In this document: piece after piece, positions 13,090 to 55,175 of the stretch | Layout of the letters: each line of letters opens with the position of its first letter | How positions within the stretch are numbered: position 1 is the first letter of the stretch | Assembly: GCA_964016885.1 (NCBI GenBank) | Contig: OZ024740.1 | Coordinates: 362,142,001 to 362,206,000 of the forward strand | Origin: Eledone cirrhosa | Taxonomy: Eukaryota | Direction of reading: 5' to 3' | DNA: 64,000 nucleotides | Notes under the pieces: model-generated | What the model saw: only the letters and a program-made list of their open reading frames with translations | Told to the model about the DNA's origin: nothing | Database searches by the model: none | Program-made: the position numbers and the translations under genes

Positions 13090-14621
13090 GGACAGAGCCA
13101 TATCCAATGACTGGTGCCGCAGCATAATCATTAATTGATACAAAGGAAAAAAATAATGCTCTAGAAAGAAGCAACTACAGAGGAATAAAGCTAATGGATC
13201 ATGTTATGAAAGTGACAGAAAGGGTTCTAGCGCATCTAGTTAGGGAGAGAGTGAAATTATATGAGATGCAGTTCAGTTTCATGTCAGGAAGAAGCACCAG
13301 AGATGCACTTTTTTAGTAAGACAACTACAAGAGAACAAGAGAAATTCTTAGCTACAATTAAGCCTCTATACCTAAATTTTGTTGATCTAGAGAAAGCCTT
13401 TGACAGAATACCACAATCTGTCATCTGGTGGTTCTTAAGGAAACTAGGTGTCGAAGAGTGGCTTCTTAGAACACTGCAAGCCATGTACAGAGGAGCTGTA
13501 AGTAAGGTTAGAATAGGAAGTGAGTTTAGTGAAGAATTCACGGTACAGGTAAGAGTGCATCAGTGTTCAATCCTTAGCCCACATCGGTTTATCATAGTCA
13601 TCGATGCCACAACAGAGGGGTTTAAGACTGGTTGCCCCTAGGAACTTCTGTACACTAATGATCTGGTCCTCATAACTGAATCTGTGGAAGAACTAGAAAA
13701 TGAATTCCAACTGTGGAAACAGAACTTAGAATCAAAAGAGTTTAGAGTAAACTTAACAAAAACCAAAATGTTGATCTCATCAGGGAAGTGGCCTTGCTCA
13801 ACATATAGAAAAAGAGTAAGCATAAACTCTATATGATGTACACAATTCAAATCTTGGGTACACGAGAGGTGTAATGGGAAAACAGACAAACTAATACGAA
13901 AGGAAGACTGTGTATATAGTAGATATTCAGGGTCAATTGATAGTAAGAGTGCCAATAACAACAAAAAAAAACTATAATTTTTTCCAATTCCAGAAGGATC
14001 CATTGGTTGATAGCTTCAGCTACCTAGGTGATAACAGTAGGGGAATGTGATCTGAGAGTAACTATACTCTCAGATCACATTCCCCTACTGTTATGGACAG
14101 TTAGGGAACTGCTACCTCTGTTGACAACAAAAGGTTTCTCCTTAGGAATGAAAAGTTGACTGTATGATGCCTGTGTGTGAAGTGTGATGCTGCATGGTAG
14201 TGAGACATGGGCAGTGAACACAGAGGACATGAAAAGGCTGGAGAGGCAAGCATGTTTCAATGGATGTGCAATGTTAATGTGTGAAAATGACAAAGCATGG
14301 GTGAACTAAGAGAGAATCTGGATATAAGAGGAATCAGATATAGTGTGCATGAGAGAAGACTGTGTTGATATGGACATGAGATGCATACAGATGTTGATCA
14401 TTGGTGAGGAAGTGCCAAGTAATCCCAGTGGAGGGAAGCTGCAGTAGAGGCAGATCAAGAAAGATGTGGATGAAAGTGGTGAGAGTTGATCTCAAATCGC
14501 TGAAACTCACAGAGGAGATGACAAAGGAACATGAAAAGTGGAGCCTTGCTGTAGTGAGAAGGACTTGTCCAACCCATGCAAGCATGGAACAATGGACATA
14601 AAATGAGGATGATGATGATGA
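13090..14621 (+). mobile_element. decayed RTE-clade LINE (RT to 3' end)
   Basis: FVDLEKAFDR, GCP, post-RT Cys region, 3' aacccatgcaagcatggaa and (gat)n tail; many stops. Confidence 0.9.
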
Positions 14622-30456: not shown

Positions 30457-30502
30457 GAAAAGATTAACTGTTCATGAAGCAATTGATCATGCCTGGCTGA
30501 AG
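30457..30502 (+). CDS. unc-22: twitchin kinase exon, end of catalytic core (KRLTVHEAIDHAWLK)
   Basis: tacag/gtaagt; ends in phase 0. Confidence 0.93.
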
Positions 30503-33500
30503 GTAAGTGGCACATTCAGTATTTGGAAAGGCAATATAACATATCAGCATACAGTTTTAGATATGACTTATATTATATTTATCCATTTATAATGTGTATT
30601 AATTATTATATATAATAGAGATATTTTTCAGTGGGATCAAGTTTGATTTTGAATTTAAAAAAATTCAAAATGGATGTTATGAAATTAAATAATCATTCAA
30701 ATATATTTGAACCATTAAGCATATTTAACTTCCATGAAAATTCCATAAATAGTGTGGAATAATAGCAGCAGGATATCAATATCCTATTTAAATATCATAA
30801 TGCATACTAACTATTTTATTTCATATATATTTAGTATGGATGCTTTCATTATGTACTTGGCATGTTCATTGTTTAATAATGGAAAATATATATCATGTCA
30901 TGTCTCATAAATAGACAATTAAGTTTGGCCTCAGGTAGTGATTAGCTCTGTAAATCATCTATATATGTATATATATAAATAAGTTTTAAAAATTATGAAA
31001 AGTTTTCTTCAAAAACATTATTTTAAATACTTGTAATTAAGAATGGAGGTTACAAACCTTACACTAGCAGTAAAATCCCATAAAGAAACAAATCTGAGCA
31101 CATTAGATTTTCATTATGTCTCTGAAAAGGAATTTATTCACAACTCCCTATTCTCTAAATGTTAATATGCTTTAGACGTTATGCCTATGTCAAAATAAAT
31201 TATATTTATATATTAACAAATACAGTAATATGCACATATTAATGATAACCCTTGTAAATATATCTAAGTTTCAAAAACACTTTCAAAACATTAAAGTATT
31301 CTAAAGATTAAAAAATGTAAGAAAAGATATATTGATGATATAAATAAAGTTTGAGAGAGAAAGAAGGTAGCTTTTATCTATAGGTTTTTCTACATATATA
31401 TTAAAATTCAGATTTGAAAGATAAATAAATATTCATTCTTTAGAAGTTACTGAAATTTAATTTGGTTAAATTTCATAAACAAATAACATTTCAAATATTT
31501 GTATAACTGTATTGTAGATTGAGAGTATAGATGAGCAAAATCAATAGGTTAGGGAATAACTAGCTGTGAGGTTGGCAGTTGATATTCTGTCACCAACATA
31601 GAGTACTGGGGTCGATTTAATCGACTTACCCCTCCCCTTCAAATTGCTGGCCTTGTGCCTAAAGTAGAAACAATTATTAAAAAAAGTAATTAATCCATCC
31701 ATCAATTGGTTAATCAAATATGGAGTAAAATTGAAGTAAAAATAGAGAGGAAGTACAGAAGGCAAAATATTATTGATAAAGTCACAGACTGTGATGTATG
31801 AGCTTTGACAATTAAATGATTAGTTGATTGGTTCATTAACCACTCAATTGATGGATAGATGAATTACCTGATTAATTATAAAAACTGAAGTGAAAATCAA
31901 CTGGTGTACATATTTTAATTAGCAGCATGGCCCTACCAAAGTATAACAATGTCTCAACATCATTAATCTTGGAAAATAAATACAAAAATTAAGTATAATT
32001 ATTTTGATATTTTGTACAAATGTCTGTTATTCTTGAAGTTATAAAGAAAAATAAGTATCAGGTTAAAATAAGTGGCAAATTAATGAGGGCTGATTGAGCT
32101 GTAGCCAAGGTTCCCAAATTATTATTTCTTTTACCATAAATAATATGTAAGGGCTTTGATTAAAATTTCAGCTAGTGAATCCAAGCAAGTTTATTTTGCT
32201 TCTGGTTAATTAGACAATAAGAAACTATTCAATTTTTTTTTAATGAGAAATTCACTACCTGAAAGCCAAAATAATTCATAAAAACATTCTCATTGTCATC
32301 CACATGCAACTAATGATTATTAGCTTGTTTCATTCACCCAAAAATGTTCATCAGTTATTCAGTGTGTTGCATGCTGATGACAGACCAAAACATACATGAA
32401 ATAAATGGAGGACATATGAACATCAGAGTTAACATAATATGATACACAATATAAAATGTTATCTTTTTATAAAATGGACTTTTATTTTATTAACTTCCTT
32501 TATTCTATTTAGATGAAAATATATGACTGTTTTAAGTATTATTATCTTTCACGCAATCTGTTTCATATATACTCAAAGTTATTAATGAATTTATATAATG
32601 TATTAATGTATAGGCATTTCAGGGTAATATAAAGAGAACATATATTATAACAGCATTAGTTAAGATTTATTTTTAAATATAAAATTGAAGGAGATACTGT
32701 ATATTTTATATCCTTAACATACTGTATAATAGCTATATTTTATATACCTAATATACACTATAATGTTTATATTGTTCTTATTTATCATCTTTATATTGAT
32801 ATCCGTTAATAGATCTGATTGACTTCACTAAATTTTAAAATGTGAGATATTTTGAAATTAAAGAATTTGCTAAATTTTCTCATTAATCTCAGAAAAAAAT
32901 ATGACAGTGAAGGCAATTTCAAATCACAGTAAATAATGTGCATTACTATGCAATCGTCAAATAAAATAGATAGGAGTTTTACTTCATGATAAAAAAAAGG
33001 TTATTGTTATTCATTAGTTCAAGAAGAGTGAAGAATAGTGTTGACTTATTGACGGTCATGTTGTCAATGTTTAATTTAATATATTGCAAGTTAGCAGTTG
33101 AAGAAATACATTTCTGGTAAAGAAGAAATAGGTTCATTAGTGCAGGGTCTTGAAAAAGAAACACATTAAATGTGCCAGGTGGAGAAGAGGAAAGTCCATT
33201 GTATAGATAGGTTGGAAGTGACATAAAGATTAGAATGACCTGCTATTGGTAAACAAAGCACAAAGTTTGATTATTTGTGTTGAGTGTTGATGGCTCCAAG
33301 GAAGAAAAATTAATTTTTGTGGTAGTCTTTACAATGTAGGATATACATAATAGGTTATCAGTAATTGTTAAGCCAGTGACAAGAGTGTAAATGTTTAAAC
33401 CAGGTAGTTTGAATGTGACAAATGCAGTGCTAAGGATTGGTTTCTTTAATATATATTTACCTGTGTTTTAGAGATTTTGAATGAGTCTATATTGTCAAAA

Positions 33501-41623: not shown

Positions 41624-43786
41624 TCATCGTTTAACGTCCATATTCCATGCTACCATGGGTTTAGACAGGAAATGTCCCACTTGAGGCAAGATTGGTCGTC
41701 TTGCTCGCATAGGACTGTCTGGCAGGTTTTCTATGGCTGGATGCCCTTCCTAACACTAACCACGTTTACAGTGTGGGCTGGGAGGTTTTTACCGTGTTAC
41801 CTACACGGCCACATCACAGCGTGGACTGTGTTTTTTTGTTGTGACACCTATACGACCATATTTATTTAGGACTGGATGTTGTGGTACCAACATCACTTTA
41901 AAGAGAATGGGGTGGTGCTGATGGGGGTGGGGGAGTTGGGGGAGTGGGAGGGGTGTGTATATTTGATAAAGAGGTGCCTTCTGACTGCAGGTTTCGCTTT
42001 TTACTTAGGCAAGGTGGGTTTTCTGTATTACTGCGTGGTGCCAAAGATCTCGGTCCAGTGACATTGTCTTAGAGAGGTGTAAGTGTGTAATGTCGGAATT
42101 TATCAAATCGTCCCAGGTTTTCTTGGGTCTGCCTACTTTTGATCACTCTGGACTTTTTTATACAGCTGTTGTCTTTCATGCGCATCACGTGACCATACCA
42201 ACGTATTTTTCTCTCGACTAAACAGAATCTGATCCCTCTTATACTTAATTTCTCACTTAGTTCATTTATGCTTTGTATATTACTATTACACATCCAGCGG
42301 GGCATGCATGCTTCGTTTCTCTGCAGTCTGTGCAGATCTTCTGCACACAATGCCCATGTCTCACTGCTATGTAACATAGCTGTTCGTATGCAGGCATCAT
42401 ACAGTCTGCCTTTCATTTTTAGAGAGAAACCTTTAGCGGCCAATAGTGGTATAAGCTCTTGGAACTTTTTCCATCCCGTTCTGACTCTGGCTACTGTACT
42501 TTCTGAACACCCACCATTGCTGATTTTGTCACCCGGGTAACAGAAAGTGTCCACTATTTCTATAGAGCCATCTGGGCAATAGAAGGAGCTAGTATCCTGT
42601 GGGCTCTTGCTACTTATTTCACCTGAGCACCGGCCACATATAAAATCTACGTTCTTAGATAGCTTACCTGTGATCCCACTACATCTTTTATGCACCCATA
42701 CTTTGCATTTGGGACATAAAATGGAATTTCTGCTTACTCCTTTCCTACACACTGAACATGGCCATTTCCAAGAGGGGACCTGTGCACTATTTTCCTTCCT
42801 ACATACTAGAACTTTAGTCTTAGACAAGTTAACTTTAAGGCCTTTTGATTCTAGGCCATGCTTCCATGTTTGGAATTTCTTCTCTAGTTCAGCCATCGAT
42901 TCAGCTATGATCGTCTGCATAGAGAAGTTGCCATGGGCAGCCAGTCTTGAACTCCTCTGTTATGGCCTGAAGGGCAATAATAAATAGGAGGGGGCTAAAG
43001 ACAGAGCTCTGATGGACACCAACTTTTACGCTAAATTCTTCACTATATTCGTTGTTAATTCTAACCTTGCTGACTGTTTCTCTATACATGGCTTGTATAG
43101 CTCTCACAACCCATTCATCAACCCCTTGTTTTCTACGGGCCCACCAGATAATGGCATGGGGGACTCTGTCAAAGGCTTTCTCCAAGTCAACAAAACCTAA
43201 GCAGAGGGGTTTACTTTTAGCTAGGTACTTCACCTGTAGTTGTTGTACAAGGAAAAGGGTGTCTGTGGTACTTTTACCTGACACAAACCCAAACTGCATT
43301 TCATCTAGATAAATTTGTTCTCTGATTAGTTGTGCTATAACTTTTTCTGTGACCTTCATGACCTGGTCAGTTAATTTAAGGCCTCTATAGTTTCCTCTAT
43401 CTAGTGTATCTCCATTACCCTTATAGCAATTAATGATGATGCTGCTACGCCAGCCATTTGGTATGACCCCATTCTGTATGACTTGATTTACTATCCGTGT
43501 GACCATAGTGTGTCCCACTGTTCCAGATGCTTTCAGCATTTCAGCAACTATCTCCAAAGGTCCAGCTGCCTTGCCTGTCTTCATATCTTTGATTATCTTA
43601 CTTATTATACTACCTTCAACTTGCACTGCTGGTCCCTCTATTGGATCGATGTGGGGCAGACTATCTTTGTCCCATTTATTCTCCTCATTTAGTAGCCTCT
43701 CGTAGTGACACTTCCAAGCTACCTTCATATCAGCATCAGTGATGGCAAGTACACCATCATCATTACGGACACACATCTCCCCGGCA
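41621..43786 (-). mobile_element. 5'-truncated RTE-clade LINE (RT + PHD-like Cys/His finger)
   Basis: ORFs 42901..43776 and 42069..42920 (NYRGLKL, DLEKAFD, YADD, CSVC..CPKC..HKRC..CGRC); (gat)n tail. Confidence 0.95.
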
Positions 43787-49925: not shown

Positions 49926-50374
49926 TATTGTACTTGCTTGATAATATAAGAATAGTTTAGTTATTCACATACCAAATGAAAATCCTTAATTTTCTTATTA
50001 TATTATAATTAAGGTCAATCTTTATGATTTTGTATATGTCAAGTTTCCCTGAATGAGGTCTTTATGAACCTAACAAGATTTAATATAAAAACTATATAGG
50101 ACTGAAGCAGAGTTTGATATATTCAGATGTTCTCATAAACAGTATAAAATTTATGTTTTTAATTATAAATAAGGAGTTGATAGTGAATTTCATAATATAT
50201 ATCAAATTAGTTTTTTTATGAAAAGAATTTCTATTGAAATCATATATGTGAAAGGGTGAATAAAATTTAGTTGGTATTTGGGACATTTTGCATTTGATTT
50301 TAAGGAGTCAACAACAATGAATAGGCCAGAACATTGATACTGGCATGCTATTGTTCGTTTTTCACTTTTTCCAG

Positions 50375-50413
50375 GTTTTCGAGGAGGAAGTCCAAAATAC
50401 TGACCAAGGGAAG
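50375..50413 (+). CDS. candidate alternative twitchin micro-exon or terminal exon (VFEEEVQNTDQGK)
   Basis: Strong acceptor ttgttcgtttttcactttttccag; 39 nt open in phase 0; followed by AAG/gtatag; lies in non-repetitive sequence. No transcript evidence. Confidence 0.4.
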
Positions 50414-52207
50414 GTATAGACTTCATGCCAAGTTTTTACCCTTACTGCCTCTTCTGATCATTTCCCTTAAAAATTGTGTTCAGAAGTTTTACAAACCATT
50501 GGTTTTTGATATACTGTTTTTGCTGATCTTAATTGTATATCTTAAAAAAATTCTATACTTGAAAATGTCTACACACTAAACCCTGATCTAATTTTCTCAA
50601 GGAGCATCTTTCTCAGTGTTTTATGTATATCCCCTAATGCTAATGAGCTGTTAGAGAAACACAGGATATACGTAATAATCTACTGAACTATTTCAATTTT
50701 ACTTAATATTCATTGATTCTTTTTGCAGTTGTGCAGTATTGAATCAAAATGTGACGAAAAATTAATTGTACTAACAGCATTAATTCTTTTCTAATTTAGA
50801 TTAAATTTCTTGTGAAATGATACAGGGCAGGAAAGTAAAATGAATACATGAAACCATATATATCTATTATGCAATGTCATACTTTGAATACTTTAAGTAA
50901 CTAAGAATAATTACATAGGTACTAAACAAACAGCTTAATTTTTCACATTTTATATCAATGAAAATCTAAAAACCAACAACACTAATTGTGAGTCAGATTA
51001 TATAAATGTTTCTATCAAAAATAATTATAAAATAATACATTTTATGCTTTATTAGCTCTCTATATAGTTTCTCTTAAGTTATATAAATATTTAATCTTTA
51101 CCAAATACAATAAAACAGCTATTAGTTTTTAGATAATTTATATGTATATATTTGTATAATAGTAAATATCTATATGACATTATTACATTGATTTGGATAA
51201 ATATCAGTGTCTTGCCCCACAGTTTGCTCTCCCATTGATCTACCAAACACTGCAACAGAAAAACTGGCAAACTCGGTTGTGTATGTCATGTTCATTGGAA
51301 GGTTTTTAATGGTCGAATGTCCTTCCCATCATCAGTCACTTTATTGTGCCTCTGGCATTAAAAAGATTGTCTGTGGTAGGACATGAGAATACTCACCACA
51401 CTTTCTCTACTTCCTTCCTACCACTTGCCACTTTACAGTTGTGGAATAGGAGCATTTGGGAGTAAAGTATCTTCTCTATCCATTTATCATTTGTTTCTTC
51501 CTATTTTGGCATAATGTTAACAGCTGGATATACGTTTCCTATCAACATCCAATTTACAGTAAAACACAACATGCATTTTATCATGCCACCAGTACTAGAC
51601 AGTTTTTCACCTGAGGTAAAAGTTCCCAATACTTTGTATATAATTCATTCAGAGTTACTGCTTGAGAGTATGTTTGGAGTATTCAACCTCATAGCAAACT
51701 GAAAGATCATATATCTCTATGATGTAGTCAGAGGCATAGCTATCATGGGGGTTAACACAGCATACACTAAGACTGTTGCACATTATGTTGGTAAGCAGGA
51801 GGAGATATATATAGGTACTGTGAAAATGAGATTATATAGATAAATGTGGTAGAATATATTCATCATATAAGCATTCATATTAAATACATTGTATTTACAT
51901 ACTTTCATATTAACAGTTTCAATCTTGACACACACAAAAAAAAATATATATATATATTGCAACTACAATACCAAGTTGCTTTTTATATTGTTTTCATGTA
52001 AGACTACTGCGCTTCATTTATCATAATAACATGTAGTATTCTTTAAACAATATTATCATTTAAAACTAATATGTCTATAATTATATATGTGTGTGTTTGT
52101 GTATTAGTTCTATATATAAATATTTATACATATTTACGCACACATATGCATATAAATGTGTATGTGTGTGTGCTAAATGTATGTTTACACAGATGTATGT
52201 GTATGTA

Positions 52208-53393: not shown

Positions 53394-55175
53394 AAAAGTA
53401 ATAGCGCAACTAATCAGAGAGAGAATTGACCTAGATGAAATGCAGTTCGGGTTTGTGTCAGGCAAAAGTACCACAGACGCTCTTTTCATTGTACGACAAC
53501 TACAGGAGAAGTACCTAGCTAAAGGTAAACCCCTCTACTTAGCTTTTGTCGACTTGGAGAAAGCCTTCGACAGAGTCCCCCGCTCCATTATCTGGTGGGC
53601 TCTTAGAAAACTAGGCGTTGACGAATGGCTTGTGAGGGCTATACAAGCCATGTATAAAGAAACAGTCAGCAAGGTTAGAATTAACAACGAATATAGTGAA
53701 GAGTTTAGCGTAAAAGTTGGCGTCCATCAGGGCTCTATTCTCAGCCCCCTACTATTTATTATTGCCCTTCAGGCTATAACAGAGGAGTTCAAGACCGGCT
53801 GCCCATGGGAACTCCTATACGCAGACGACCTGACACTCATAGCGGAATCAATGGCCGAGCTAGAGAAGAAATTCCAAACATGGAAGCACGGCCTAGAGTC
53901 AAAAGGACTTAAAATTAACCTGGCTAAGACTAAAGTTCTAGTTTGTAGGAAAGAAAACAAGGCGGCGGTCCCTTCTGGGAAATGGTCGTGCTCGGTGTGT
54001 AGGAAAGGAGTAGGCAGAAACTCCATTTTATGTCCCAAATGCAAAGTATGGGTGCATAAAAGATGTAGTGGGATCACAGGTAAGCTAACTAAGAACATAG
54101 ATTTTACATGTGGCCGGTGCTCTGGTGCAATAAGTAGCAGCAAGTGCCCACAAAATACTAGCTCTTTCAATTGCGCAGAGGGTTCTATAGAAATAGTGGA
54201 CAGCTTCCGTTACCTGGGCGATAAAATCAGCAGTGGGGGAGGGTGCTCTGAAAGTACAGTAGCTAGAGTCCGAACTGGTTGGAAAAAGTTCAGAGAGCTT
54301 ATACCACTATTAGCCGCTAGAGGGTTCTCCCTAAAAATGAAAGGCAGGTTGTACGATGCCTGCATACGAACAGCAATGTTGCATGGCAGTGAGACCTGGG
54401 CATTGTGTGCAGAGGATATACGCAGACTAGAGAGGAACGAAGCTTGCATGCTCCGCTGGATGTGTAACAGTAATATACGTGAACGGCAAAGCATAAACGA
54501 ACTAAGGAAAAAATTAGAGATAAGAGGGATCAGATGTTGTTTACTCGAGAGAAGGCTACGTTGGTATGGACACGTGATGCGCATGAAAGTCGATAGCTGT
54601 ATAACAAAGTGCAGGGCAATAAAGATAGACGGTAGCCACGGAATAGGCATACCTAGAAAAACCTGGGACGAGCTGATAAACTCCGACCTCACACACTTAC
54701 ACCTCTCCAAGACAATGTCACTGGACCGAGACCTTTGGCGGTACTCAGTAACAGAGAAGACCCGCCTTACCTAAATACATAGTAAAACCTACTACAGCCA
54801 GTAGGCATCTCTAACAAAATACATCCCGTCCCACCACCACCACCCCCACCCCATCCACACCACCCCGTTCTATGTAAAGTTATGTTGGTGCCGCGCCATC
54901 GAGGCCGAAACAAATGAGATCGTGTAGGTGTCACGACAAAAAAACACACAGTCCACGCTGTAATGTGGCTGTGTAGGCAACACGGTAAAAACCTCCCAGA
55001 CCCACACTGTAAATGTGGTTGGTGTTAGGAAGGGCATCCAACTGTAGAAAACCTGCCAGACAGTCCTATGCGAGCAAGACAATCACTCTTGCCTCAAGTG
55101 GGACTACCCCCGTCCAAACCCATGCAAGCGTGGAACACGGACGTTAAACGTTGATGATGATGATGATGATGATGA
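53394..55175 (+). mobile_element. young 5'-truncated RTE-clade LINE, uninterrupted 444-aa ORF
   Basis: ORF 53440..54774 with RT (DLEKAFD, GVHQGS, YADD) and Cys/His finger; 3' UTR and (gat)n tail. Confidence 0.96.

Follow-up and report, generated by a model that had tools for sequence, protein, structure and literature searches.

We conclude with high confidence that the twitchin gene of Eledone cirrhosa contains a 39-nucleotide (nt), in-frame cassette exon, which relatives include or skip, and we propose, more tentatively, that its 13 residues, placed just before the autoinhibitory tail of the kinase, slacken the tether of the tail and would thereby tune its release. The exon, its frame, its conservation and, in relatives, both of its splice forms are observed; it is real, conserved, octopus-restricted as far as seen and located at a regulatory hinge. 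The 13-residue insert proposed in a preliminary description of this DNA is supported by RefSeq isoforms of Octopus bimaculoides, by the donor junction in a relative, by the skip junction and by conservation. The cassette is already present in automated annotation (RefSeq, O. bimaculoides). No mention of it was found in the available passages of the open literature searched, and it is absent from the passages available from PMC8523150, PMC4472019, PMC12040844, PMC6059360, PMC2120353 and bioRxiv 10.64898/2026.05.18.725903.

Host gene and giant intron

The window, the whole 64,000-nt stretch analysed here, spans contig positions 362142001–362206000 on the + strand. A tblastn exon map identifies its Ig, Fn3 and kinase exons as twitchin, a titin-like giant kinase, with Aplysia 1KOB as the best solved match; the gene runs from Ig/Fn3 repeats through the kinase and the CRD to C-terminal Ig domains, and its kinase-region exons share 89–100% protein identity with O. 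bimaculoides twitchin, which marks the animal as a near octopod relative of that species. The last kinase-core exon (..HAWLK; 30457–30502, + strand) ends in phase 0 before the donor GTAAGT at 30503, and its joint 28972>30457 is spliced in relatives' runs X8 and X12. The next constitutive exon (GDHSN.., the start of the linker and the tail/CRD) lies at contig position 362223136, 17 kb past the window end, so that the intron separating the last kinase-core exon from the first autoinhibitory-tail (CRD) exon measures 50,633 nt rather than the 33 kb first claimed. It is six times longer than any of the other 31 measured gaps of the gene (0.1–8.4 kb), and about one third of it is simple repeat.

Reverse-transcriptase-like retroelement copies, labelled from the appearance of their translations, lie inside introns at 13255–14600, 42072–43200 and 53395–54771. 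Near the 3′ end of the gene, an exon after the second C-terminal Ig (approximate extended coordinates 87485–87730) encodes a Ser/Thr-rich run and is open to a stop, and two O. vulgaris twitchin models end near it, losing the last Ig domains. About 42 kb downstream of twitchin, at extended coordinates 145944–146747, a long exon of a fibrinogen-domain-like protein was recognised by eye.

The cassette exon and its splice sites

The exon (50375–50413, + strand, phase 0/0) reads VFEEEVQNTDQGK, followed by GTA TAG, and is in phase with the HAWLK exon, as first described; it lies between AG and GT, its length is a multiple of three, it is stop-free and its phases fit both neighbours. A polypyrimidine tract and acceptor AG (50352–50374, + strand) precede it, and a weak donor, GTATAG (50414–50419, + strand), follows. 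With a splice-site matrix trained on the sites of the twitchin gene itself, which favours those sites, the acceptor scores 10.8 against a true-site median of 10.4 and ranks third among the 2026 AGs of the giant intron. The donor scores 2.6, below the minimum of 4.2 among 30 true donors, and ranks 960 of 2906 GTs. Together they form the best of 150 in-frame, stop-free candidate pairs, narrowly (13.5 versus 13.4); because this lead is 0.1 bit, splice-site sequence by itself is only suggestive of the exon. The region is single-copy, as the preliminary description held, except for approximately 51080–51175 (query 881–976), which matches two other places.

Three further acceptor-like AGs occur nearby in conserved sequence, at 50728, 50736 and 50799 (ranks 11, 117 and 18 of 2026); AG 50736, in phase 0, would give one codon and then a stop, the conserved sequence stops three bases past 50799, and no junction at any of the three was seen in the contigs of the relatives' runs. 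A recursive splice site is improbable here: the acceptor reads AG|GT, but the donor that it would regenerate, GTTTTC, departs strongly from consensus. Long-range pairing of the conserved sequence with the intron ends was rejected, its best energies (−28.1 and −22.4 kcal/mol) falling within the range of ten control stretches (−22.4 to −29.7 kcal/mol).

Conservation around the exon

The cassette is surrounded by a conserved block (50279–50802, + strand; 520 nt) that is likely to be splicing-regulatory and is covered in whole or in part by four of four runs from four organisms. By substitutions, the block is 96–98% identical in these four other organisms, compared with 91–94% for coding exons, and the cross-species comparison put forward in the preliminary description thereby turned out positive. 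In run X4, the block differs at 14 of 496 nt and a coding exon at 39 of 492 nt (Fisher p = 0.0004); in run X8, the corresponding counts of 20 of 515 and 10 of 181 (two listed pieces) do not differ significantly (p = 0.39), and in run X12 the coding exons differ from the window at 45 of 491 nt. A 2,257-nt contig of run X8 fits the window only over 515 nt at a threshold of 85%, and the flanks beyond the block therefore diverge.

Within the block, the flanks are conserved as much as the exon. No difference is listed in runs X1, X4 and X8 across 50334–50405, which covers a GCATG motif, the pyrimidine tract and 31 cassette nucleotides. The exon itself is identical to two relatives at 38 of 39 nt, its codon 11 encoding Q in the window and being CGA or CGC, both Arg, in relatives; on the strength of this identity, we infer that the source species splices the cassette as its relatives do. 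A further conserved stretch (30658–30929, + strand), close to where the giant intron begins and matched at 93% identity by one run X4 contig (272 nt, 19 other letters, 4 gaps), contains TACTAAC (30805) and GCATG (30860) and may contribute to the same choice between splice forms.

Both splice forms in relatives

Junction evidence comes from seven of 17 possible RNA runs of relatives, which carry no tissue labels and were used as assembled contigs that drop minor links and give no levels (runs X1, X4, X6, X8, X12 and X14 are distinct from RefSeq isoforms X1–X8). Runs X4, X6, X8 and X12 are RNA, because kinase exons are joined in them by spliced joints; that X1 and X14 are RNA is a guess. Contig 3 of run X4 departs from the genome at 50414, and the 25 letters that follow match the next exon exactly; it joins the exon end to the next exon, and the cassette donor is therefore used, as the preliminary description anticipated for position 50413. 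Such use was seen in one of the four runs that cover the block. The same contig keeps the upstream intron unspliced, with 465 nt of upstream sequence running into the cassette and from there to the next exon. Either the assembly graph linked nascent RNA to a spliced molecule, or the transcript starts upstream; the contig fits both. The skip junction behind 30503 is present in run X8, at the loose end of a contig, and in runs X1 and X8 there are contigs that cross the donor without splicing. Among the matches listed from the seven runs, none shows the upstream junction 30502>50375; its sole source is seven of the eight RefSeq predicted models of O. bimaculoides. Contig depth near the cassette is 10–14, against 420 (run X4) and approximately 2900 (run X8) in the kinase exons, hinting, as far as this poor measure goes, that the cassette form is minor in the sampled runs.

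Octopus isoforms and phylogenetic range

The RefSeq twitchin isoforms X1–X8 of O. bimaculoides (XP_052825203-211) are predicted models, the number of which carries no information on abundance. Six of the eight (X1 and X3–X7) read HAWLK-VFEEEVQNTDRGK-GDHSN, with the cassette between the kinase and tail exons. Isoform X2 is without exactly these 13 residues, the sole indel of at least three residues between it and X1, and isoform X8 continues from the cassette into a different terminal sequence and ends at 3,981 amino acids. The cassette is skipped in one O. sinensis model, in three of three models from O. vulgaris and in two older models from O. bimaculoides (octopus cluster, best 15 of 20 members among the matches listed). 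The peptide of the window genome is identical to that of O. bimaculoides at 12 of 13 residues, with Q here and R there at position 11. Exon-inclusion tables for tissues of O. bimaculoides underlie bioRxiv 10.64898/2026.09.05.749416 and may include the cassette.

Among the matches listed, none of 99 non-octopus lophotrochozoan isoforms with a kinase contains the insert; the tail starts at a spacing of 13 from H-x-W in all 99 and of 26 in the included form. This set comprises gastropods, bivalves, a brachiopod and an annelid (117 proteins listed, 4 without a kinase), its large clusters being sampled in part (best 15 of 94, 93, 33, 19 and 16 members). The insert was found in none of 80 readable junctions in an earlier search of proteins of 120–2000 amino acids, a set with no protein named as cephalopod; a representative protein search returned no close mollusc twitchin, and no squid or cuttlefish twitchin is among the matches listed. 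Even apart from the insert, animals differ by a few residues in the length of the kinase–tail linker.

Elsewhere in O. bimaculoides twitchin, isoforms differ in a segment (residues 718–835; P0385) containing RRASLADVIPDW, which we take to resemble the mollusc D1 phosphorylation site; this variable segment is relevant to catch-like muscle in cephalopods.

Predicted consequence at the kinase–tail hinge

On the 1KOB chain, the position of the insert corresponds to the step from K309 to G310, and the insert raises the core-to-tail spacing from 13 to 26. We used AlphaFold to fold two versions of the O. bimaculoides region, one that contains the insert and one that lacks it, from matched alignments of 47 rows. 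With the insert, the model superposes on Aplysia 1KOB over 365 columns for 352 residues, with 13 extra columns, an rmsd of 2.1 and a TM score of 0.96; residues 311–324 have pLDDT values below 50, and in the best model the insert is partly a helix extension. Without it, no segment falls under 50. The confidence of the first tail helix is lower with the insert (about 51–56 versus 77–84), and four of five models are near 78, compared with four of five at 86 or above without it. We do not take this drop as a sign of tail release, as the absence of the insert from the alignment lowers confidence anyway.

In the available passages on C. elegans twitchin, the two tails cooperate and removal of either yields partial activity (PMC8523150), and inhibition comes mainly from helix R2 and strand R1 (bioRxiv 10.64898/2026.05.18.725903). 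The insert leaves both helix R2 and strand R1 untouched. The models indicate that the tail of the long form probably still docks, and the kinase would be autoinhibited at rest. At the textbook contour length of 0.38 nm per residue, the 13 residues are predicted to add approximately 5 nm, and an acidic patch would come to lie beside the basic first tail helix. A longer, acidic tether would tune how easily the tail detaches. Such tuning is the function we consider most likely, although we propose it tentatively and a neutral loop is about as likely; that the insert measurably changes activity, the response to activators or the unfolding force is a possibility to which we give somewhat less than even weight.

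Candidate splicing regulation

The combination of a strong acceptor with a weak donor, set in conserved flanking sequence, would fit a regulated exon. An Rbfox-type GCATG motif (50343–50347, + strand) lies 32 nt upstream of the cassette, with no difference listed in runs X1, X4 and X8, and overlaps an in-frame ATG at 50345. Downstream, TACTAAC and a TAAT half-site 5 nt later (50769–50784, + strand) form a candidate bipartite Quaking/HOW-type element, with no difference listed in runs X4 and X8. This element is 356 nt from the cassette, in the downstream intron, and 25 nt before AG 50799 (rank 18 of 2026), for which TACTAAC may instead serve as the branch point. ACTAAT (50981) and AATAAA (51109) lie outside the conserved block. 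These motifs, ACTAAC at 50770 among them, and the acceptor AG ending at 50374 stand where the preliminary description put them. By chance, AATAAA is expected within 750 nt with a frequency of 74%, ACTAAY within 400 nt with 24% and GCATG within 50 nt with 6%, and single motifs alone are near chance level. Conserved motifs do occupy regulatory positions, but because the whole block is conserved this is weak evidence by itself. In the passages available, GCATG upstream of an exon is a repressing position under the vertebrate Rbfox rule (PMC3575530), and a full site with a half-site defines the Quaking motif, the downstream placement of which would promote inclusion (PMC9786888). By analogy, the cassette may be under Rbfox/Quaking control, and we tentatively suggest that the GCATG before the exon represses inclusion, whereas the Quaking/HOW-type element after it promotes inclusion.

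A second element in the same intron

The tail of RefSeq isoform X8 maps to contig positions 362220004 onward, in single-copy sequence 27.6 kb after the cassette in the same intron. Here lies a candidate second in-frame exon of 180 nt and 60 residues (contig 362220004–362220183), which begins with ATG ATG (MM), contains Ser/Thr/His-rich repeats and matches the O. bimaculoides X8 tail at 59 of 60 residues, apart from a 5-residue repeat indel. Its donor is good (rank 21 of 2906) and its acceptor poor (rank 829 of 2026), and the frame is lost between the two species only past the donor. It looks like an exon that either ends the protein or splices on, and may represent a second cassette, a terminal exon or a first exon. 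A search with the 60-residue element (proteins of 106–2000 amino acids) returned one candidate and none scored. A form of the X8 type, without the whole tail, should be a partly active kinase.

Alternative explanations

The strongest competitor accepts the exon and contests only the tuning step: the block would be conserved for RNA-level reasons, such as pacing or guarding the splicing of the 50-kb intron or controlling access to the terminal exon farther downstream, while the 13 residues would be a harmless loop. We put this a little short of an even chance. It accords with the flanks being conserved like the exon, with the autoinhibited fold kept in AlphaFold, with the sole modelled path to the terminal exon (RefSeq X8) running through the cassette and with the seemingly minor share of the cassette form. 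It sits less easily with the preserved frame and stop-free reading, the 12 of 13 residues identical to O. bimaculoides, the codons of the relatives at position 11, both Arg, and the long-range pairing, which is not above controls. Chance splice signals, with noise-level splicing picked up by automated annotation, are very improbable and already largely refuted: the narrow lead of the splice-site score and the absence of the cassette from other octopus annotations would suit this explanation, yet the exon-centred 520-nt block recurs in four organisms and exceeds coding-exon conservation in run X4, and the donor junction appears in independent RNA.

The cassette could also, or mainly, be an internal first exon. 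Telokin from MLCK and catchin/myorod from mollusc myosin are parallels for such short products. Translation from ATG 50345 (MLLFVFHFFQ-VFEEE..), joined to the tail exon, would yield a kinase-less tail-plus-Ig protein; the ATG is in frame, a stop lies upstream at 50318, the run X4 contig carries its 465 nt of upstream sequence into the cassette and on to the next exon, the intron is exceptionally long and myorod offers a precedent in the passages available (PMC12040844). We nevertheless regard it as unlikely, as seven RefSeq models enter through the acceptor, which equals constitutive ones in strength, the contig may join nascent and spliced RNA, and ATG 50345 belongs to the GCATG motif. Still less likely is the terminal exon of the preliminary description, in which the donor would go unused, TAG 50417 would terminate translation and the RNA would end beyond AATAAA 51109. 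Contigs of runs X1 and X8 pass the weak donor unspliced, but they pass the acceptor too, as nascent RNA would; none of the 15 listed octopus cluster proteins ends in this way, and the AATAAA lies outside the conserved block and is at chance level. A tail-less twitchin is nevertheless modelled (RefSeq X8), by way of the cassette and an exon outside the window instead of the GTA TAG route originally proposed.

A broader possibility, improbable at present, is that the 50-kb intron is an octopus-specific, three-setting splicing switch of twitchin kinase autoinhibition. Skipping would give a tight tail, inclusion of the 13 residues a slack tail with easier release, and inclusion followed by the downstream exon a form without the tail or last Ig domains and with a partly active kinase; or else the 180-nt exon would be spliced on to serve as a further 60-residue spacer.

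Significance and comparison with known systems

How the inhibitory tails come off the kinases of twitchin and titin in muscle is an unsettled question in the passages available (PMC4472019). A conserved natural pair differing only by a 13-residue hinge spacer, together with a modelled tail-less form, lends itself to direct comparison in kinase assays and by force spectroscopy. If the three-setting switch is true, the muscles of one animal would carry mechanosensors of different threshold and provide a natural series for how such kinases are switched on; should the insert have no effect, the exon is one more lineage-specific cassette of the ordinary sort, which RefSeq already contains.

The octopus kinase region shares the NL–kinase–CRD–Ig layout of the Aplysia and C. 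elegans twitchin kinases (PDB 1KOB, 1KOA and 3UTO), with 85% identity to 1KOB, and all of these solved structures are without the insert. As in vertebrate cassettes regulated by Rbfox and Quaking, the exon is short and frame-preserving, with a weak donor, conserved flanks, an upstream GCATG and a downstream ACTAAC with a half-site; unlike in those cassettes, factor binding and the direction of its effect are predictions for cephalopods, and the Quaking-type element is 356 nt off and possibly a branch point. For the kinase region of C. elegans TTN-1, splice variants have reportedly been described, in a report not found in the literature searched, and Kusaka et al. are said to have described tissue-specific D1-site isoforms of Mytilus twitchin in 2008. 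The octopus isoforms that vary around RRASLADVIPDW resemble these Mytilus forms as alternative versions of a regulatory segment; as far as the available passages go, the Mytilus D1 site is near the N-terminus, whereas the octopus cassette is at the kinase–tail hinge.
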